Shown one piece after another: positions 32,023-58,461 of a stretch of DNA of 64,000 bases. The position numbers and the translations under genes are program-made. Numbering within the stretch: position 1 is the stretch's first letter; each line of letters starts with the position of its first letter. The stretch comes from Polyangiaceae bacterium (GTDB lineage Bacteria; Myxococcota_A; Polyangia; Polyangiales; Polyangiaceae), in the NCBI GenBank assembly GCA_016715885.1, contig JADJXL010000022.1, positions 11,588 to 75,587 on the forward strand, read 5' to 3'. The notes below the pieces were generated by a model, which worked only from the letters and a program-made list of their open reading frames with translations, had not been told where the DNA came from and ran no database searches.

Positions 32023-33003
32023 TCAGCGGAAGTGGTCGTAACCTCGTTGTTCCACTGGGACAAACGCTGCTCCGGGGCCATCGAGCACCAAGTCGGAATC
32101 CGTTTTTTCTGACGGAAGCACGCGGCCGATGGGGATGAACCCCGGCGGAACCTGTCCCGCTGGGACCGTCATCACCAGCGCAAAGTCCTCACCGCCATGC
32201 AGCGCCAACTGCAACGGGTCGGCACCTACGATGCGCGCCGCGCGCTCGAGCTCCGGCGTCACGAGCTTCGTCGGATCGAGCGCGATGCGCACGCCACTGC
32301 CTCGAACCAAGTGTCCCACGTCTCTCGCAAGTCCATCGGATACGTCGATGGCAGCCGTCGCGACATCGCGCGCGGCAAGCCCATCCGCAATGCGTGCAAC
32401 GGGACGCCTGTACGCGCGCAGTGCAGGCTCTGCATCAGGGTGCGCATCCGGACGAGCGTTCGTCTTGCCAACCGATGCTTGGAGCAGCAACAGTCCCGCC
32501 GCGGACAAGCCAAGCGGTCCAGCAAGCACGACCGTGTCTCCCGGACACGCTCCCGCGCGTGTGAGCGGGCGACTCGATTCACCGAGCACCGTCGTCGTAA
32601 TGGAGACTTCGCTGCCACGTGCGAGGTTTCCGCCGACGATCGGCATGCCGAGCTCACCCGCCGCTTCGCTTTGACCCTGCAAGATGCCACGCAGGTCGTC
32701 GTCGCTGAAATCGGCTGGCAACACGAGCGCAGCCAAGATGCCGATCGGCGCCGCTCCCATCGCACCAAGGTCACTCGCTGCAGCCATCGTTGCGCGGTAA
32801 CCGACGTCCACCATCGACACGAAGTCGCGACGAAAGTGGACGCCCTCGACTTGCGCATCGATGGTCCACACGAGCGGCGTCTTGCTCGGAGCAAGCACGG
32901 CTGCATCGTCACCGATGCCCACGAGTGTTCGGTCTGCATTACCCGTCGCGAACGTCGAACGGATGAGGTCGATCCGTGCTGCTTCCGAGCTGCGATGACT
33001 CAT
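32023..33003 (-). CDS. thiL: Thiamine-monophosphate kinase (PurM-like fold)
   Basis: The IGDDAAVL...VEGVHF motif is present. Start 33003 was chosen because the ORF extension to 33141 overlaps the upstream kinase gene. Confidence 0.7.
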   Translation of the reverse strand: MSHRSSEAARIDLIRSTFATGNADRTLVGIGDDAAVLAPSKTPLVWTIDAQVEGVHFRRDFVSMVDVGYRATMAAASDLGAMGAAPIGILAALVLPADFSDDDLRGILQGQSEAAGELGMPIVGGNLARGSEVSITTTVLGESSRPLTRAGACPGDTVVLAGPLGLSAAGLLLLQASVGKTNARPDAHPDAEPALRAYRRPVARIADGLAARDVATAAIDVSDGLARDVGHLVRGSGVRIALDPTKLVTPELERAARIVGADPLQLALHGGEDFALVMTVPAGQVPPGFIPIGRVLPSEKTDSDLVLDGPGAAFVPVEQRGYDHFR

Positions 33004-33010
33004 CGCCGTT

Positions 33011-34459
33011 CTATCCGTCGAACCGCACCGCAACGGCAGTCTGCGGCGACGTTTCCGACGCAGGCGCTGCTGGCAGGCGGACGACGAAGACCGCACCTTG
33101 AGGCGTGTTGCTCTCGATGTGCACCGTGCCGTGATGCCCATCGACCAAACGCTTCACGATCGAAAGGCCGAGCCCCGTTCCTTCGTATTCACGCGAATGC
33201 CGCTGATCGACTTGGTAGAACGGATCGAAGACCTTCGTGCGTTCCTCTTCTGGAATTCCGATTCCCGTGTCCGCCACGCGCACTTCGATCATCTGTCGCA
33301 ATGGCGCGAGGAGCACCAAACCAGATTCGTCACCATCTTCGTCGTTCACTTCGACTTGCCTGGCCGATAGCGTGACGCGACCGTTTGTCGGGGTGAACTT
33401 GATCGCGTTCTCCGTCAAGTTGATGAACACCTGACGAAGTCGTTCGGGATCGCCAACGACGACAGGCAAATCTTCCGGCGCGTCGACCTCGAACGTGATG
33501 CCTTTCTTCGATGCTTTCGGAGCGAGCGTCGACACGGCTTCCATGAGCACCGACTTGATGAGCACGTCGCCGCGACGAATCATCACCGTGCCGCTCTCGA
33601 GCTTCGACAGGTCGAGAAGACTCATGATGAGCTCGAGCAAGTGATTGCTCTTGGCTTCGATGATCTTCACGAACTCGAGTTGCCCGGGAGTTAGCTCGCC
33701 GGCGATTCCACCGGAAAGCATTTCGCTGTAGCCGAGGATCGACGTCAGCGGCGTGCGAAGCTCGTGTGACACCGTCGCAAGGAAGTGGCTCTTGAGTTTG
33801 TCGAGCTCCTTTTGCTTGGCATAGGCCTGCTCGAGCGCAGAGGTCTTCTTCGTCAGTTCTTTGAAGCTCTCGCGCATCGACGCGATGTGCATCGTCGACG
33901 TCAAGTGCGCTTTGTGCCCACTCCAGAGCACGACATCGAGCACGGCGACGAGATGCTTGGCGACCGCCTCCGCAACGACCTCCGTCGCATGCGGCATGAG
34001 TGGCAAAAGCTCCGCGACCCGCGCCACGTCGATACGGCTGCTCACCTTGAACAGCGCATCGGGAATGGTTTCAATCGTCGGATCGACATACGGTCCGACG
34101 ATCACGCGGCCGATGACGTCGCCTTCGTATTGAATCGGCATCAGCCGATACCGGGCGCCCGTAAAGCACGGATGCTGCGTGCCTTCCTTCGATACGAGGC
34201 GCAAGCGTTTGACCTCGGCGACGACCTTGGCGCATGCCCGCCGTCCCGACGGCTCCTCGTTCACCATCGCGCAGAGGCTGCATTCGTTCGTCGTGCTGGC
34301 CAAATTCGTGCCCGAGCCCGAAACGATGCGCACATGCATGCCGAAGATCTGCTCGAACGAACCCACCATCGTTCGAAGCGACTCGCGATCGACGAGATCC
34401 TCGAGTCGGGGCGGGCCCAAGCCAATCGCATCGGCGCCCGTCGAAGCTTCGTCATTCAT
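33011..34459 (-). CDS. Sensor histidine kinase with an N-terminal Cys-containing PocR-like sensor domain
   Basis: HisKA H-box HELRTPLTSILGYSEML and HATPase GTGLGLSIVKRLVDGHHG. The N-terminal 200 aa carry C..C....C...C and PCF motifs reminiscent of PocR. The start is set at Met 34459, immediately after the stop of the mglA-like gene. Confidence 0.75.
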   Translation of the reverse strand: MNDEASTGADAIGLGPPRLEDLVDRESLRTMVGSFEQIFGMHVRIVSGSGTNLASTTNECSLCAMVNEEPSGRRACAKVVAEVKRLRLVSKEGTQHPCFTGARYRLMPIQYEGDVIGRVIVGPYVDPTIETIPDALFKVSSRIDVARVAELLPLMPHATEVVAEAVAKHLVAVLDVVLWSGHKAHLTSTMHIASMRESFKELTKKTSALEQAYAKQKELDKLKSHFLATVSHELRTPLTSILGYSEMLSGGIAGELTPGQLEFVKIIEAKSNHLLELIMSLLDLSKLESGTVMIRRGDVLIKSVLMEAVSTLAPKASKKGITFEVDAPEDLPVVVGDPERLRQVFINLTENAIKFTPTNGRVTLSARQVEVNDEDGDESGLVLLAPLRQMIEVRVADTGIGIPEEERTKVFDPFYQVDQRHSREYEGTGLGLSIVKRLVDGHHGTVHIESNTPQGAVFVVRLPAAPASETSPQTAVAVRFDG

Positions 34460-35187
34460 GGCGTTCCCCCAGGCAGAACGTTCGACCCGACCGCGCCCAT
34501 ACGCGTCGCAATCAGCTCGCGGAACGGCGTCGTCACGCCCAATTGCTGCGCTGCCGTTCGGACCATTTCGTCGCCGTCGATCGACAACTTCTTCGCCAGT
34601 TGATGGCTCTGATCCAGCGAACGCCATGTGAGCCAGAGCAAACAGATGAACGTTTCGACTACCCCGATGCCTCGCGTCGCAACCGCTCGAAACACCGGCT
34701 CACTGCCTTTCGCAGCAAGACGCACGAGCTCTTCGTCGGTCCGAATGTCCGGCATGTCGCGCTTGTTGAACTGAATCACGAGCGGCATCTTTCTGATGTC
34801 GATGCCGCTCTCCTTCAAGTTCTGACGCAAATCCAAGAACGCCTCGGCGTTGCGGTTCGTCTCGGATATGCGCGAGTCGACGATGAGCGCGACTCCATCG
34901 GCACCTTGAAGCACGAGCTTGCGTGTCGCTGAGTGGATGGGTTGTCCAGGAACGGTGAAAAGCTTGATGCGAAGAGAGAAGTCACCATCCTTCGACTTGA
35001 ACGTCAGCGGCAAAAGGTCGAAGAAAAGCGTGCGATCGTCCTGCGTTTCAAGCGTCATCAGGCGACCGCGCGTGTCGGACCCAGCGCGCGCGTGCAAGGC
35101 CACGAGGTTCGTGGTCTTGCCGCTCAACGCTGGCCCGTAATACACGAGCTTGATGGTGATCTCGCGAGAGGCGAAATCGAGCTGCAC
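34456..35187 (-). CDS. MglA-family Ras-like small GTPase paralog with a 50-aa C-terminal extension
   Basis: About 40% identical to M. xanthus MglA over 190 aa: SREI.IK.VYYGPALSGKTTNL, DRTLFFDLLPL (Arg-finger position), TVPGQ (catalytic Gln), NKRD. Confidence 0.85.
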   Translation of the reverse strand: MQLDFASREITIKLVYYGPALSGKTTNLVALHARAGSDTRGRLMTLETQDDRTLFFDLLPLTFKSKDGDFSLRIKLFTVPGQPIHSATRKLVLQGADGVALIVDSRISETNRNAEAFLDLRQNLKESGIDIRKMPLVIQFNKRDMPDIRTDEELVRLAAKGSEPVFRAVATRGIGVVETFICLLWLTWRSLDQSHQLAKKLSIDGDEMVRTAAQQLGVTTPFRELIATRMGAVGSNVLPGGTP

Positions 35188-35246
35188 GAGAGGATTGTCG
35201 CACGCAACAGGGCCGCGCGTCTTGCTCGATCAGTCGGCCCGTTCAA

Positions 35247-37031
35247 TCACGATGCGGCCACTTTCTCCTGCGATGCGCCCGACGCCCACACACCACTGCG
35301 CAGACTTTCCAGTTGTTCGATCACACCCGCGAGCGCCTTTGCTTCCGCATCACACGCTGCAATCGCCGTCTCCACGCTGAGCGCTGTGTTCGCTCGTTCA
35401 GCCTTCGCAGCACCGAGCACTTCGATGACCTCGCGATGCAGCTCTTCACCAGCCGTCACGACCCACGCATCGAGCCTTTGCGCGAACTCCTGAATCATCT
35501 CGTCGAGCTTCGGACCAACCTTCGTCGCAGCTTCACGCACGGCAATCGGCGCAAGCTCCTTCGCCCGCTTCTTCGTCTCCGTTTCGATCATTCCCTTCAC
35601 GTACACGGCCAGCACCGGAGCCGCGACCGCGAGGATTCCACCAAGAAGCACGTTGAACGTCATCACCGCGAGGCCCGCGCCAAACAGCGCAATGACGCCG
35701 ACGTCGTATCCGAGCGTGTCGACTTCGACGTTCGGTGTGCGAAGGTTTGCCCCGAGCGCCTCACGCACGCGCTTGGCAACCTCGTGCGCATCGTCGCGAA
35801 CGAGCGCGATCGTGCGCTCCGCGAGCGCTTCGAGCGCGTTGGCAATTTCCTTCGTCTCCGCCTGCGCCCAATCCGCAAACGTTCGCTCCAGGAACGGCCC
35901 GAGGTGCACTTTCAATTCATCTGCCGGCGCATTGTCGACGACATCGGGAATCTGTCGCGTCACGTCGGCGACAAACCTTTCGAGGTCCCGCTGCACCCAC
36001 GCCTGAATCCTCGCGACCTCTTCGCGAATCCCAAACCGCCGCTCCTCGATCGTCTTCGATTGTCCCGCGAGGTCTCGCTCCAGCATCTCGATCCGCCGGC
36101 TCAGCTCTTCACTCGTCATCGCCGCTGCCCGACGTCGCGCGTCGATGCCCTTGCCAAGCATGCGCGCCGCCTCGATGCCTTCACCGAGCGCGTTGTCGAG
36201 CAAGATGCGCCCGCGCTCTTCCGCCAAGAACGTCGTCAGGTGCTGCAGCAATTCGGGCATGCCGCTCTCCGTCGCTTGCCCATCGAGCGCCTTCCTCGCA
36301 CACACCGGAAATACGACCGGACTTCGCACCAGCTTGGCCAGCTCCGAACGAATGTACGCGAGCGCTTCGACCTCTTCGTCGGAGCTCCAAATATCGCGCT
36401 TCGTCACGACGAAAACGATCTTGTCGCGCGATTGCCCGAGGAGTTTTTCATTCAAGAACACCCGCTCGCTCTCCTTGAGCGGCTGACCCGCATCGAGAAG
36501 AAAGAGCACCGCGTCCGAACGAGGAATGTAGCTGTACGTGATGTCCGCACGCTGAAGCGACAGGTCGTTCACGCCTGGCGTGTCGACCAAAACGATGCGC
36601 TCGCGAAGGATCTCCGCCGGGTAATACACTTCGAGCCGATTCACGTCGTTCGCGACGCTTTCGGTCCCTTTTTCCTGACCAACCGCAAACTTGCGCACTT
36701 CCTCGAACGCCATCGTTTGACGTTCACCCGAAGCTCGCACGAGCTCTGCGCGAGGCTCGGCCGCATATTCGAGGTGGTGAATCACGGCCGTCGTGGGTGT
36801 GACGCCGACCGGGAGAACTTCTGCTCCGAGCAGCGCGTTCACGAACGTCGTCTTGCCATGGTTGAACTCGCCGACGACGACCAAGTGAAACCTGTCGGCT
36901 TCGAGTTTGTCGACGACATCGGTGCCGATACGACCGGCAAGCGATTTGGCGCCTACGCGAGCGGCAATCGTCACGACGTTGCGCAGCGCCGTCGCAACCT
37001 CGAGCTGCTTCGTGCGAAATGATTCGAGCAT
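35247..37031 (-). CDS. Bacterial dynamin-like protein (BDLP), large GTPase
   Basis: G1 GEFNHGKTTFVNALLG, G3 DTPG, G4 TKRD; length 594 aa with long helical stalk regions. Confidence 0.8.
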   Translation of the reverse strand: MLESFRTKQLEVATALRNVVTIAARVGAKSLAGRIGTDVVDKLEADRFHLVVVGEFNHGKTTFVNALLGAEVLPVGVTPTTAVIHHLEYAAEPRAELVRASGERQTMAFEEVRKFAVGQEKGTESVANDVNRLEVYYPAEILRERIVLVDTPGVNDLSLQRADITYSYIPRSDAVLFLLDAGQPLKESERVFLNEKLLGQSRDKIVFVVTKRDIWSSDEEVEALAYIRSELAKLVRSPVVFPVCARKALDGQATESGMPELLQHLTTFLAEERGRILLDNALGEGIEAARMLGKGIDARRRAAAMTSEELSRRIEMLERDLAGQSKTIEERRFGIREEVARIQAWVQRDLERFVADVTRQIPDVVDNAPADELKVHLGPFLERTFADWAQAETKEIANALEALAERTIALVRDDAHEVAKRVREALGANLRTPNVEVDTLGYDVGVIALFGAGLAVMTFNVLLGGILAVAAPVLAVYVKGMIETETKKRAKELAPIAVREAATKVGPKLDEMIQEFAQRLDAWVVTAGEELHREVIEVLGAAKAERANTALSVETAIAACDAEAKALAGVIEQLESLRSGVWASGASQEKVAAS

Positions 37032-37056
37032 CGCAAGCTCTCTTTCCTATCCAAAC

Positions 37057-37950
37057 CTATCCAAAAACCTTGATGAATCCATGAACTTGGTCGTCGACTT
37101 CCTCCATCGACAAACCTTTTCCCTCTTGCCCCACGTGATGCATGTAGAGCTCGCTTTGCGCGAACGTACGTAGCGCCTTCACGCGCGTCGGTACCCACGG
37201 ATGCGTCTGAAGAAGCTCGCGAAAACGTCCCACGCTCTCCTTGCCTTCTTCGTGCTGCGCCAAGAATGCTTCCAAGTTCAGCTCGGAATAAAGCTTGGCC
37301 GAGCCTAGTGCGAGCTTGGCAAGCGCGCGCGTCGAAACGTCGAGGTTGCGGGAGCATAGAAGGCTCGCGCGATCGCAGGTGATCTCCGCTCGTCGCAACC
37401 AGCTTCGGAGAGGAATCATCGCTGGATAAACGATCCACTGGACGAAGATCGAAACCATGACCTGCAAGTAGTGCATTGCGGTCAAGTACACGACGTGGCT
37501 GTTGTGGATGTGCCCGCACTCGTGACCGATGACGCTGCGCAATTCTTCATCCGTGAAGTGATCGACGAGCGCCGAATGGATCATGATGAAGGAATCGTCG
37601 TTCGTCCCGTACGTCGCAGCATTCATCTGCGGGCTGTTGACGATGTAGACCGTAGGCGTGGCAATGCCGAGCGTCTGCGCGCATTCGGCCGCTAGACCAT
37701 GCACGCGTGGAAACTGATTCGGCCCGACTTTGACTCCGTGACCCAAGAGATCAGCCTTGCCTGATTCCTTGAAAAAACGAACCGACGCAGCCACCGCAAG
37801 CTCGACCGGCTTCATCCTCTCGAATGCCATGCGTGTCGCGTGATCGGACGCGTACGCGTACGCATGACCCCCACCGTCCGATCCACCCGCGCGTTGCTCT
37901 TTGCGGCTCGCGACGAAGCCTTTGAAATCGAGCGTTCCGACTTGTGCCAT
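37057..37950 (-). CDS. M48-family Zn metallopeptidase (HtpX-like)
   Basis: HExxH in IGHECGHIHNSH; length 297 aa. Confidence 0.7.
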   Translation of the reverse strand: MAQVGTLDFKGFVASRKEQRAGGSDGGGHAYAYASDHATRMAFERMKPVELAVAASVRFFKESGKADLLGHGVKVGPNQFPRVHGLAAECAQTLGIATPTVYIVNSPQMNAATYGTNDDSFIMIHSALVDHFTDEELRSVIGHECGHIHNSHVVYLTAMHYLQVMVSIFVQWIVYPAMIPLRSWLRRAEITCDRASLLCSRNLDVSTRALAKLALGSAKLYSELNLEAFLAQHEEGKESVGRFRELLQTHPWVPTRVKALRTFAQSELYMHHVGQEGKGLSMEEVDDQVHGFIKVFG

Positions 37951-38164
37951 GAAGTTCGAACGTAACGGCGGGGATGCTGCGGTGCAACCGCACCTCCCGC
38001 TTCATCACGCAATTCGACGAGCGCTTTGCACACCCTTCACAGATGCCTTCACGCACGTCGTCATGAACGCGCGCGACCTGCCTGCCGATCACAACAACCT
38101 TTCGAAATTTTCTGCCCCTCCCAGACGAACAAGGCTTGCGTTATGAACGGAGAACCACCCCCGC

Positions 38165-39994
38165 ATGCCTCAAATCTACGGAAACACGAACGGGCTCAGC
38201 CCCGCCGCACACAAGACACTCGAACGCATCTACCGCCGTAAAGTGCCCCTCGAGCACATCGCGACGCCGGAGCTCATCAAGTCGCTCGCTGAAGCATCCA
38301 AAGAGACGGGCCGCCAAGTTGGTGCTCTCGTTCATCGATCAGGCGCGATCGACTACGTCATCGTTGGTGATGCAACGAAACTCATGCTCCCCGACATCGG
38401 ACGCCTCCGCGCGGCCGAAGGACGCTTTCGTGCACTGCGTCTCGTCCACACGCACCTCTACAACGAGCCGCTCACGCGCGATGACATCGTCGACCTCGTC
38501 CGCCTGCGTCTCGACCTCGTCGCCGCCATTCAGCTATCCGCCGAAGGCGAAGCGAAGACGATGGACTACGCGTACAACACGCCGCCTTCTCCCGTCGCTG
38601 CGGATGAAGATCCACGCAACCGACTGCCTTACAGGCGCGTCGAGCCGCAACCGATCGGTCGCATCGATACGGACTTCGGTGCGCTCATCGCCGCGCTCGA
38701 AGACGAATTCGCGAAACGTTCACGCACCGTTTCGACGACGGCCAAAGACGGTCGAGCCATCCTCGTGCACGTCGCGGAAAAGTCGAAACAAGGCGCATAC
38801 ACGAACGCAGAGGAGAGCTTGCGTGAACTGTCCGAGCTGTCACGCACGGCCGGTGTCGACGTCGCCGACACGGTCATTCAGCTTCGCGAAAGGATCGACC
38901 CGCGCCTCATCGTTGGTAAGGGCAAACTCGACGACATCGTCTTGCGCGCGGCCGAGCTCGATGCGGCCACGCTCGTTTTCGATCGCAATTTGAACCCGTC
39001 GCAGGCTTCGGCGATCGCCAAACATTCGGATCTGAAGATCCTCGATCGAACGCAGCTCATTCTGGACATCTTCGCGCAGCGCGCCGAATCGGCCGACGGC
39101 AAGCTTCAAGTGGAGCTGGCGCAACTCAAGTACGCGCTTCCGCGTTTGTCCCAAAAGGACGATTCACTCTCGCGTCTCACCGGCGGCATCGGCGGCCGTG
39201 GCCCTGGCGAAACCAAGCTCGAAATTGGACGTCGGCGCGCGAAAGAACGCGTGAGCTTTCTCGAGGACGAGCTCAAGAAATTGAGCCGTCAGCGTGAACA
39301 ACGCAGGCGCAAGCGCTCGAGACAAGGCGTGCCGATCGTGAGCATCGTGGGCTATACGAACGCGGGCAAGAGCACGCTGCTCAATACGCTCACGGGTTCC
39401 GACACGATCGCCGAGGACAAACTCTTCGCGACGCTCGACACGCGTTCGCGAAGGCTGCGTTTTCCGGAAGAGCGTGAGGTGATCATCACGGACACCGTGG
39501 GCTTCATTCGCGAGCTGCCCAAGGACCTGTTTGCAGCGTTTCGCGCAACGTTCGAGGAAACGGCGGATGCGGATCTTCTGCTGCACGTGGTCGACGCGAG
39601 CGATCCTGCGCGGGATCAGCAGATCGCCACGACGGAGGAGCTGCTTGGGGAGCTTGGTCTGGCGTCGATTCCGCGCATCGTGGTGTTCAACAAGATCGAC
39701 TTGATCGAGCCGGGTGAAGCGCGAAGGCTGCTCGTGGGACGCAAAGATGCGGTGATCACGAGCGCGCGCGATCGCGAATCCACGCGCGCGCTGCTCGCCA
39801 TGATTGCTTCACGTTTGAAGGAACGATGGGAACGGTCGAGTTTGTCTGGGTACAGCAGTGCGACGGACGAACCGCAACTCGACGCGGGCGATGAAGACGT
39901 TGCAGCGGTAGCGATGCTGGAAAATTCGTCGCTCACGACGCTCGAAGAAATGCTGGCGAGCAAGCGGTATCGTCGGACCACGATTGGGGCCTGA
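38165..39994 (+). CDS. hflX: GTPase HflX (long form, about 170-aa N-terminal extension)
   Basis: HflX N-domain coiled coil with G-domain SIVGYTNAGKSTLLN, DTVGF, NKID. Confidence 0.85.
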   Translation: MPQIYGNTNGLSPAAHKTLERIYRRKVPLEHIATPELIKSLAEASKETGRQVGALVHRSGAIDYVIVGDATKLMLPDIGRLRAAEGRFRALRLVHTHLYNEPLTRDDIVDLVRLRLDLVAAIQLSAEGEAKTMDYAYNTPPSPVAADEDPRNRLPYRRVEPQPIGRIDTDFGALIAALEDEFAKRSRTVSTTAKDGRAILVHVAEKSKQGAYTNAEESLRELSELSRTAGVDVADTVIQLRERIDPRLIVGKGKLDDIVLRAAELDAATLVFDRNLNPSQASAIAKHSDLKILDRTQLILDIFAQRAESADGKLQVELAQLKYALPRLSQKDDSLSRLTGGIGGRGPGETKLEIGRRRAKERVSFLEDELKKLSRQREQRRRKRSRQGVPIVSIVGYTNAGKSTLLNTLTGSDTIAEDKLFATLDTRSRRLRFPEEREVIITDTVGFIRELPKDLFAAFRATFEETADADLLLHVVDASDPARDQQIATTEELLGELGLASIPRIVVFNKIDLIEPGEARRLLVGRKDAVITSARDRESTRALLAMIASRLKERWERSSLSGYSSATDEPQLDAGDEDVAAVAMLENSSLTTLEEMLASKRYRRTTIGA

Positions 39995-56265: not shown

Positions 56266-56338
56266 GCTGGCGTAGCTCAATCGGTAGAGCACCTGCCTTG
56301 TAAGCAGGGGGTTAGGGGTTCAAGTCCCCTCGTCAGCT
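56266..56338 (+). tRNA. tRNA-Thr (anticodon TGT)
   Basis: Cloverleaf gctggcg / D-arm agctcaatcggtagagc / anticodon loop cTTGTAa / T-arm ggttcaagtcc / cgtcagc. Confidence 0.85.
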
Positions 56339-56483
56339 CCGTGGGGTTCAGACGGGGGGCGAACCCGGTGGCAGATCATGAAGAGAACGTAAAGGCCGAT
56401 TGAGGAACGGGAGAGACGAGAGCCAAGGAGACGCGTACTGAGACAAACCGTGAGTAGACACGGGATCGTTTGCATTGACATAT

Positions 56484-56567
56484 GGAGGGTTGCCCGAGCG
56501 GCCAAAGGGAGCAGACTGTAAATCTGCCGGCGATGCCTACGTTGGTTCGAATCCAACACCCTCCACC
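56484..56567 (+). tRNA. tRNA-Tyr (anticodon GTA), long variable arm
   Basis: ggagggt...gcagactGTAaatctgc...ggttcgaatcc...accctcc. Confidence 0.85.
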
Positions 56568-56652
56568 GAAACGCCGAAAGGTGTTTCGACCAGCAGGGCC
56601 GGCTCGATCGTTTGAGGACGAAGCAAAGGGGAAACTCGATGCTTTCAGATTC

Positions 56653-56728
56653 GCGGGCGTAGCTCAGTTGGTAGAGCGTCAGCCTTCCAAGCTGAACGTC
56701 GCCGGTTCGAACCCGGTCGCCCGCTCCA
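56653..56728 (+). tRNA. tRNA-Gly (anticodon TCC), CCA encoded
   Basis: gcgggcg tagctcagttggtagagc ...cTTCCAa... ggttcgaaccc cgcccgc tcca. Confidence 0.85.
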
Positions 56729-56738
56729 CCGGCCCATT

Positions 56739-56814
56739 GCCCACCTAGCTCAGTTGGTAGAGCACGTCCTTGGTAAGGACGAGGTCGTCGGTTCAAGCCC
56801 GATGGTGGGCTCCA
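56739..56814 (+). tRNA. tRNA-Thr (anticodon GGT), CCA encoded
   Basis: gcccacc tagctcagttggtagagc ...tTGGTAa... ggttcaagccc ggtgggc tcca. Confidence 0.85.
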
Positions 56815-56872
56815 CGAAGGGAAGAATTGCTCGCGCGACCGAATTGGTCGGCAATCGTCAGGAGACAGCTCG

Positions 56873-58063
<1,191 letters not shown>

Positions 58064-58074
58064 CGGGTGACGAG

Positions 58075-58239
58075 GTGCAGGCCAGCGGTGGGCGCAAAAC
58101 GCGAGAGACGGTTTCGTTGGCCTGCACCGAGTGCAAGATGAGGAATTACAAGACGACGAAGGCTCCCGGTAGCCACATAGAGATCAAGAAATTTTGCCCG
58201 ACGTGCAAGAAGCACACTATGCATCGGGAGACGAAGTAG
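58075..58239 (+). CDS. rpmG: 50S ribosomal protein L33
   Basis: Starting at GTG 58075 gives a 54-aa protein, ...[45 protein letters not shown], with the conserved L33 Cys4 Zn-ribbon motif. It was found as the tail of a mixed-frame ORF. Confidence 0.75.
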
Positions 58240-58276
58240 AGGTTCCGCTCGGCTCGCAAAGTGCCAAGCGGACTGA

Positions 58277-58349
58277 AGGGGTATAGCTCAGTTGGTAGAG
58301 CAGCGGATTCCAAATCCGCAGGTCGGGAGTTCGAGCCTCTCTGCCCCTG
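58277..58349 (+). tRNA. tRNA-Trp (anticodon CCA)
   Basis: aggggta tagctcagttggtagagc agcgga-ttCCAaa-tccgc ...ttcgagc... tgcccct g. Confidence 0.85.
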
Positions 58350-58461
58350 CTGGGGCCCTTTTTCAGTAGCGGTACGGCAGCGAGATAGGGCGCCTGCTCA
58401 AAGATTCGGGTTGGTTGTCGATGCTTTGGTGAGCATCGATGGTGTGGTCGAGACAAAGGCG

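Follow-up and report, generated by a model that had tools for sequence, protein, structure and literature searches.

Within a 64-kb stretch of DNA from a Polyangiaceae bacterium (GenBank assembly GCA_016715885.1, contig JADJXL010000022.1, positions 11,588 to 75,587; this whole stretch is referred to as the window), a run of five minus-strand genes spans positions 32023-37950. In the direction of transcription it comprises an M48 zinc metallopeptidase gene heading the co-directional run (37057-37950, 297 aa), a gene for a bacterial dynamin-like protein (BDLP; 35247-37031, 594 aa), a gene for an orphan, SofG-like Group 1 GTPase of the MglA family (34456-35187, 243 aa, GTG start), a gene for a PocR-domain sensor histidine kinase (33011-34459, 482 aa when counted from the ATG lying across the GTPase stop), and thiL, encoding thiamine-monophosphate kinase (32023-33003, 326 aa), which begins 7 nt past the kinase stop. 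The map of open reading frames (ORFs) gave gaps of 25 nt between M48 and BDLP and 59 nt between BDLP and the GTPase, and the GTPase stop and kinase start share the four nucleotides ATGA (34456-34459, minus strand), as read straight from the sequence. The longest ORF of the kinase extends to 34627; gene callers on identical metagenome contigs start the gene at 34459, and their boundaries are those given here. An earlier, sequence-only reading of this DNA had listed the same five genes, domains, motifs, and 25- and 59-nt gaps, all of which the ORF map and Pfam bear out; the span that it gave (33011-37950) holds four of the genes, with thiL lying just outside, and the GTPase stop and kinase start do meet as it described, by overlap rather than by mere abutment. 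Our comparison across genomes makes it likely that the run consists of two independent units that are adjacent in this lineage, namely GTPase-kinase-thiL and M48-BDLP.

Comparative data, not chance, were used to judge which adjacencies matter. The set contained 84 loci of the class Polyangia, 80 from a one-genome-per-species scan (Polyangium, Sorangium, Minicystis, Labilithrix, Sandaracinaceae, and many metagenome-assembled genomes [MAGs]; 54-91% identity) plus four Polyangium/Sorangium loci, on which the five window proteins and further neighbors were placed by tblastn. The kinase gene lay directly downstream of the GTPase gene in every informative locus (83/83), and the stop/start overlap was itself conserved: across about 84 loci, a script scored a 4-nt overlap (NTGA) in 50 and a 1-nt overlap (TGATG or TAATG) in 16, with several more overlaps mis-scored, so that at least 66 loci have one. 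At least 70 of 79 loci had thiL next after the kinase. The stop/start junctions show the GTPase and kinase genes to be coupled in translation, a tie tighter than the sequence-only reading knew, and, as judged from gene order, GTPase, PocR kinase, and thiL are a widely conserved three-gene unit or operon in which thiL, which that reading took for an appendage, is the partner with the better conservation. The closest named relatives of the GTPase came from Polyangium (84-88%) and Sorangium (75-77%), and both genera have the same flanking gene order as the window, so conservation inside that subclade alone says little.

The association extended to representatives drawn from more distant clusters (43-48% identity). 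Five distant relatives with unrelated flanks had the kinase directly downstream in all cases and thiL as well in four, with Lon, M50/DinG, GNAT, che genes, mfd, or CNNM as neighbors. In P0249, an opposite-strand GNAT gene is followed by the GTPase, the PocR kinase (4-nt overlap), and thiL, and then by a che cluster; in P0245 (loci L090 and L091) the order is Lon, GTPase, PocR kinase, and thiL; in P0254 (L093) an M50 gene and an unknown 252-aa gene precede the same trio; and in P0402 (L094) an M50 gene and a DinG-type helicase gene precede it and mfd follows. P0255 (L092, a Kofleriaceae MAG) has an M50 gene, an unknown 203-aa gene, the GTPase, a kinase without detectable PocR, and CNNM, with no thiL. 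At P0292 (L088) the contig ends after the GTPase and kinase, and at P0252 (L089) after an M50 gene, an unknown 172-aa gene, and the GTPase. Neither M48 nor BDLP was found in any of these seven distant contexts. A single 665-aa ORF, P0258 (L097:3045-5042), joins the GTPase to PocR (a weak match), HisKA, and HATPase_c in a low-GC MAG (GCA_964429075.1, contig CAYSBA010000074.1) in which thiL is not downstream; being a singleton, it is no more than suggestive of a true GTPase-kinase fusion.

Two observations concern the surroundings of the trio in these lineages. The che cluster that follows it in P0249 (JGI 3300047160) is a complete chemosensory cluster (MCP, CheW, CheY, CheA, and CheC/X). A small conserved protein of about 170-250 aa, absent from the window and without a Pfam family, is encoded directly upstream of the GTPase in Sandaracinaceae-type loci and three distant lineages (L062:9396-9947, L076:3634-4176, L089:1611-2129, L092:7338-7949, and L093:7173-7931), often just after an M50 protease gene. 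It consists of a helical cytoplasmic part (W..L...WDD..H..F) and a C-terminal transmembrane helix, with an N-terminal CxxC zinc ribbon in some members, and may be an ancestral fourth member of the GTPase-kinase-thiL unit.

The M48 and BDLP genes adjoin each other wherever both are present, with a gap of 8-99 nt in 28 of 29 loci, within a frame conserved in Polyangia that reads hflX-APH-[M48-BDLP]-[argH]-GTPase-kinase-thiL. Their position relative to the GTPase could be read in 69 loci, the other 15 having too little upstream sequence to place them. The pair stands directly upstream of the GTPase in 13 of these 69, all in the Polyangium/Sorangium subclade to which the window belongs; in five loci argH and an opposite-strand gene come between it and the GTPase, in 10 it is inverted in place, and in one it is far off and inverted. 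In 36 of the 69 it is absent within at least 5 kb of the GTPase, a distance-limited rather than genome-wide absence, and about 14 of those loci keep the APH-argH-GTPase order. The five-gene conserved module of the sequence-only reading does not survive this distribution, nor does its inclusion of the dynamin in the GTPase module, since the neighborhoods show M48-BDLP to be separable and mostly displaced, inverted, or absent. As far as gene order can tell, M48-BDLP is probably a separate two-gene, membrane-associated cassette that adjoins the GTPase unit only in this lineage; in this genome, with its 59-nt gap, it may still be co-transcribed with GTPase-kinase-thiL.

Both products of the cassette were readily assigned. 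The M48 protein matched Peptidase_M48 (5.9e-26; 91.9 bits against a cut-off of 20.3) and carries HECGH, the HExxH motif, at residues 143-147 (37510-37524, minus strand); a scan found no strong transmembrane segment, and with 57 bits, where the cut-offs are 245-420, the protein does not qualify as an HtpX equivalog. BDLP, which has the same sequence (100% identity) as an NCBI "dynamin family protein" of a Polyangiaceae MAG, matched Dynamin_N (3.2e-32), which places its G domain at 36399-36884 (minus strand), and the Nostoc BDLP 2j68 (1.3e-19). Its G1 (GEFNHGKT), G3 (DTPG), and G4 (TKRD) motifs and a hydrophobic paddle hairpin (35580-35705, minus strand; residues 443-484, a hydrophobic stretch of about 40 residues) identify it as a bacterial dynamin-like protein. 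It thus shares with the BDLPs of Nostoc (2j68), Campylobacter (DLP1/2), and IniA a Dynamin_N domain with G1/G3/G4, a helical stalk, and the paddle hairpin, but differs from them in being paired with an M48 peptidase instead of a second dynamin, and our literature search returned no description of an M48-BDLP pairing. In two MAG loci (L031 and L032), a region about 3.0-3.8 kb upstream of the GTPase holds an intact M48 gene and, of BDLP, only a detectable fragment of about 170-180 residues (30-36% identity), which suggests that the BDLP gene is decaying there. Where argH precedes the GTPase, an opposite-strand ORF fills the gap of about 1.1 kb between them; the example at L025:8894-9931 (minus strand) encodes a 345-aa product of no assigned family whose C terminus bears a transmembrane helix. 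A 569-aa ORF also lies antisense to the BDLP gene (35313-37022, plus strand), and similar shadow ORFs lie opposite hflX; these long antisense ORFs are typical GC-rich artefacts. Two conserved families that emerged from ORF clustering, X394 and X186, proved to be antisense ORFs of hflX and were rejected.

The GTPase had no strong Pfam match. Against the Protein Data Bank (PDB), phmmer returned MglA chains only (E, 1e-47 to 1e-49; about 47-50% identity), the top match being Myxococcus xanthus MglA 6h17 (E = 1.3e-49), and a Foldseek search with its AlphaFold2 (AF2) model (pLDDT, 71; pTM, 0.77) gave MglA for all 14 best folds (TM-score on target, 0.80-0.85), far above Ras/Rab. The sequence contains SREITIKLVYYGPALSGKTTNL, DRTLFFD, TVPGQ, and NKRD, and therein the Group 1 features of Wuichet and Sogaard-Andersen (2014): a P-loop of the form GxxxxGK[ST] (GPALSGKT), an intrinsic Arg beside the G2 Thr (in DRTLFFD), a G3 of TVPGQ instead of DxxGQ, and a G4 of the form [NT]KxD (NKRD); DRTLFFD and TVPGQ are invariant across the family. 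By these sequence and fold criteria, the middle gene is a true MglA-family paralog of Group 1. In an unbootstrapped neighbor-joining tree of 155 G domains, a quick tree that carries no support values, the kinase-linked GTPases formed one clade of 31 with M. xanthus MglA outside it, and most sequences outside the clade were 276-836 aa long with Gly at position 21. The nearest MglA representatives at the 50% identity level (P0257-P0390 and P0419) likewise were mostly 276-836 aa, their MglA domain being N-terminal and followed by a long C-terminal region, and P0419 (400 aa) ends in an excisionase-type HTH_17; together they look like a sizeable group of multidomain MglA proteins that has been little described.

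Two features set the GTPase apart from canonical MglA. Its P-loop (35113-35136, minus strand) carries Ala20 (codon 35128-35130) at the position of MglA Gly21 and Ras Gly12, and this GPALSGKT form with Ala was found in 83 of 85 family members from the Polyangia loci, in place of the canonical Gly. Other branches of the GTPase family have Pro or Gly there, and of 132 MglA-family representatives with a readable P-loop, 108 have Gly at this position, 21 have Ala, and 3 have Pro. Milner et al. (2014; PMC3983030) reported A/S21 in five of nine species without MglB and took Ser21 of Bdellovibrio MglA to mark a state in which GTP is bound permanently. The variable residue 21 (Ala, Pro, or Gly) fits a GTPase without an MglB-type GTPase-activating protein (GAP), and probably one with slow GTP hydrolysis. 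The second feature is a C-terminal extension of about 55 aa (34459-34626, minus strand), absent from canonical MglA and kept in all relatives, which AF2 models as a lengthened helix alpha5 and three short helices (pLDDT, 75-87). Pfam assigned it to no family, the best match being IF2_N at E = 0.11. A helix-turn-helix reading of the extension, considered from the pattern AAxQLGVxxP...L..R, was therefore dropped, and the HTH_17 of the related P0419, which sits about 150 residues further on and belongs to a different family, offers it no support.

The kinase consists of PocR (33929-34399; Pfam, 2.2e-19), HisKA (33590-33793; 1.9e-19) with His232 as phospho-acceptor, and HATPase_c (33065-33454; 9.6e-29), all on the minus strand, and its H-box (HELRTPL), N-box (NLTENAIKF), G1 (DTGIG), and G2 (GTGLG) are those of a PocR-domain histidine kinase. 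Its sequence contains no convincing hydrophobic or transmembrane segment and no receiver domain; by sequence, the kinase is cytoplasmic and soluble. PocR residues 63, 76, 96, and 98 make up a Cys-Cys-His-Cys set, which we rejected as a metal site of the whole family: Cys63 and Cys76 are kept in 36 of 82 orthologs and Cys98 in 59 of 82. With the residues retained in only 36-59 of 82 orthologs, the set may be a subclade-specific metal or redox site. The thiL product has an AIRS domain (Pfam) and scored 234 bits with TIGR01379 against an equivalog cut-off of 184, which identifies it as ThiL, and every copy tested in relatives, distant ones included, also exceeded that cut-off (218-256 bits).

As the sequence-only reading had proposed, the GTPase is an MglA paralog with no MglB beside it. 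A tblastn search with M. xanthus MglB (E ≤ 1; query verified as identical to PDB 6h5b_B) found no homolog in the window or in 87 related loci, a search that very divergent Roadblock proteins could escape, and a Pfam scan of the conserved neighboring ORFs gave no Roadblock match. The gene thus lacks the mglB within four genes that marks canonical MglA/MglB systems, with no MglB within 10 kb. Table S2 of Wuichet 2014 already places the Sorangium ortholog, sce0386 (242 aa), among the orphan MglA proteins of Group 1 and lists a separate MglB-MglA pair in Sorangium besides it. The same table gives one orphan of 220-242 aa per listed myxobacterial genome, with two longer entries: Anaeromyxobacter dehalogenans and strain K, 230 aa; Corallococcus, 241; M. 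fulvus, 239; Stigmatella, 237; Haliangium, 220; Sorangium, 242; Anaeromyxobacter Fw109-5, annotated at 271; and M. xanthus MXAN_6703, which is SofG, at 298 in the table (an older annotation) and 239 in the text.

The GTPase is probably a member of the SofG family and would be the equivalent, in Polyangiaceae, of SofG in M. xanthus. Each of the two is an orphan MglA paralog of Group 1, about 240 aa in length (239 against 243, with a 55-aa extension past the G domain here), with an intrinsic Arg; the orphan listed for Sorangium is the ortholog of our GTPase; and a GNAT gene flanks both sofG (MXAN_6704, next to which MXAN_6705 is a PilT paralog) and the 47%-identical relative P0249. In the accounts of Bulyha et al. 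(2013) relayed by PMC4316618 and PMC4085708, MglB does not stimulate SofG and no GAP for it is known, and SofG depends on GTP hydrolysis, has the bactofilin BacP as a binding partner, and sets the position of PilB/PilT. The two differ at the Gly21 position, which Ala occupies in the Polyangia proteins, whereas SofG is described as requiring hydrolysis; they differ also in partners, those published for SofG being BacP and PilB/PilT, and we found no paper that mentions a kinase or thiL. A search with P0402, a relative of the Gly type, returned uncultured sequences only.

Other known systems resemble parts of this arrangement. The MglA/MglB switches of M. xanthus and Thermus thermophilus share the G-domain fold, the RT in G2, TVPGQ, NKRD, and about 47-50% identity with our GTPase, which departs from them in having no MglB within 10 kb, Ala for Gly21, and the helical extension, and in falling into a separate clade coupled to a histidine kinase. 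The MglA of Bdellovibrio bacteriovorus (PMC3983030) is likewise an orphan that lacks MglB and naturally has a substituted residue, Ser, at position 21, but it has the canonical length of 197 aa without a C-terminal extension and no reported kinase partner, and it acts together with RomR and a TPR protein. Actinobacterial conservons (AGPS; PMC4316618, PMC13343842) place an MglA-family GTPase and a histidine kinase in one operon without a response regulator, the GTPase being thought to be part of the signaling path. The statement in the sequence-only reading that a small GTPase with a dedicated kinase had not been described was accordingly overstated, given both the conservons and the entry for sce0386 in Wuichet 2014. 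Conservons, however, require the Roadblock protein CvnB and the DUF protein CvnC, both absent here; their GTPase CvnD is of Group 2 (GTPGQ, no intrinsic Arg), whereas ours is of Group 1; their kinase CvnA is usually membrane bound, with HAMP and a C-terminal LPxR motif; and they are confined to Actinomycetota, whereas our unit is from Myxococcota. The locus is therefore not a conservon, which is the closest working analog of GTPase-kinase-thiL and not the same family; by analogy, the GTPase-kinase unit may work like one. Wuichet 2014 calls Group 1 neighborhoods not highly conserved, so the coupling of this orphan subclade to a kinase is unreported there, and our literature search found nothing on an MglA paralog with a PocR kinase, thiL, or a dynamin; within that search the GTPase-PocR kinase-thiL unit is undescribed.

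Around the run, the window holds housekeeping genes (hflX, class II ribonucleotide reductase, SppA, RNase J, and thiolase). The plus-strand hflX gene (38165-39994), named by Pfam, is separated from M48 by a divergent intergenic region (37951-38164) that is likely the promoter region of the run in this genome. A consensus promoter scan found no promoter-like sites, and terminator-like sites were fewer than in shuffled sequence; both scans were uninformative. Polyangium and Sorangium (L004-L017) have, between hflX and M48, a gene for an APH-family phosphotransferase that is missing here; in the window, M48 abuts hflX over that 214-nt divergent spacer. Elsewhere in the window, positions 56266-58350 carry tRNA genes for Thr, Tyr, Gly, and Thr, a 428-aa ORF (56777-58063; family not scanned), and tRNA-Trp, an order that resembles the classical tRNA-tuf-tRNA-Trp arrangement.

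The separation into two units has to be weighed against other explanations of the run. It appears rather unlikely that all five genes constitute one signaling and membrane-remodeling module, in which BDLP and the M48 peptidase would be effectors or partners of the MglA paralog and kinase. In its favor, the genes all run one way with short gaps here and in the 13 Polyangium/Sorangium-type loci, the cassette lies within 10 kb in 33 of the 69 informative loci in three configurations, and a precedent exists in Escherichia coli, where, according to PMC6510439, a dynamin-like GTPase partner system signals to DgcE. The in-place inversions, however, break any operon, argH and an opposite-strand gene intervene in further loci, and the cassette is missing from the same APH-argH-GTPase frame elsewhere, from Sandaracinaceae-type loci, and from every distant context, so that, on gene order, the five-gene model is largely refuted as a conserved module. 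We give a similarly small likelihood to a chiefly metabolic unit with thiL as its operon core, in which the kinase and GTPase would sense or control thiamine-phosphate or thiamine diphosphate (TPP) status. The persistence of thiL after the kinase despite full turnover of the flanks (at least 70 of 79 loci and four of five distant contexts), the short kinase-thiL gaps (7 nt here, a 4-nt overlap in L094), and the equivalog scores of every tested copy argue for it. Against this, thiL is lost or moved while GTPase-kinase persists (L067, L068, L079, L092, and L097), an Rfam scan of the window detected only five tRNAs at gathering score and no TPP riboswitch or other element, housekeeping genes often travel at operon ends, and nothing links PocR domains with thiamine. 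Very improbable, in our estimate, is a GTPase-kinase adjacency that is inherited order without function, or a GTPase that acts as the MglA polarity switch with its MglB elsewhere. The extended synteny common to Polyangium and Sorangium (hflX, APH, ribonucleotide reductase, SppA, and RNase J) is partly plain relatedness; yet the pair persists where all flanking genes differ, and the start/stop overlap is itself conserved. A plain MglA switch is further opposed by the position of the kinase-linked GTPases in a clade apart from M. xanthus MglA, by the separate canonical MglB-MglA pair of Sorangium, and by the family's own C-terminal extension and P-loop signature.

Several points weigh against our preferred account of two units, one of them built on a SofG-type GTPase and its kinase. 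The proximity of the cassette in those 33 loci leaves room for a residual functional link beyond ancestry, and the functional claims rest wholly on gene order and sequence. In some distant kinases (L092 and L088) PocR has degenerated or escaped detection, and the P0258 fusion is a singleton from one MAG that could reflect an assembly frameshift. The probable SofG identity derives from size, orphan status, and the GNAT neighbor; the need of SofG for GTP hydrolysis, as given in the relayed accounts, sits uneasily with a GTP-locked view of Ala at position 21; and a subclade that possibly includes Myxococcia keeps Gly there.

In the mechanism that we would propose for the GTPase-kinase-thiL unit, the GTPase and kinase would be made in fixed proportion and act as a complex, in which the ligand state of PocR would be coupled to the nucleotide state of the GTPase. 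Either the kinase would stand in for the missing MglB-type regulator, or the GTPase would gate autophosphorylation of the kinase. Output might then pass to an unlinked response regulator, to effectors of the GTPase, or to both, the effectors being, by analogy with SofG, a bactofilin scaffold and type IV pilus ATPases. The thiL gene may be a passenger or a pointer to metabolic input. It is conceivable, and we put it forward only tentatively, that the PocR kinase is a dedicated regulator of SofG-type GTPases, as a substitute for a GAP or guanine nucleotide exchange factor (GEF) or as a reader of nucleotide state, in a Roadblock-free hybrid of G-protein and two-component signaling that would link a cytoplasmic metabolic signal, possibly thiamine diphosphate via thiL, to cell-pole organization.

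Setting the cassette apart removes a false lead, and the dynamin and M48 genes are better studied as a pair of their own. For the GTPase family, a kinase that is translationally coupled in every genome examined provides a concrete candidate regulator or partner that is open to direct test; SofG-type GTPases have no known GAP or GEF, and MglB is inactive on SofG. Such a kinase would also carry the small GTPase-histidine kinase pairing beyond Actinomycetota, in a simpler form that does without a Roadblock protein.

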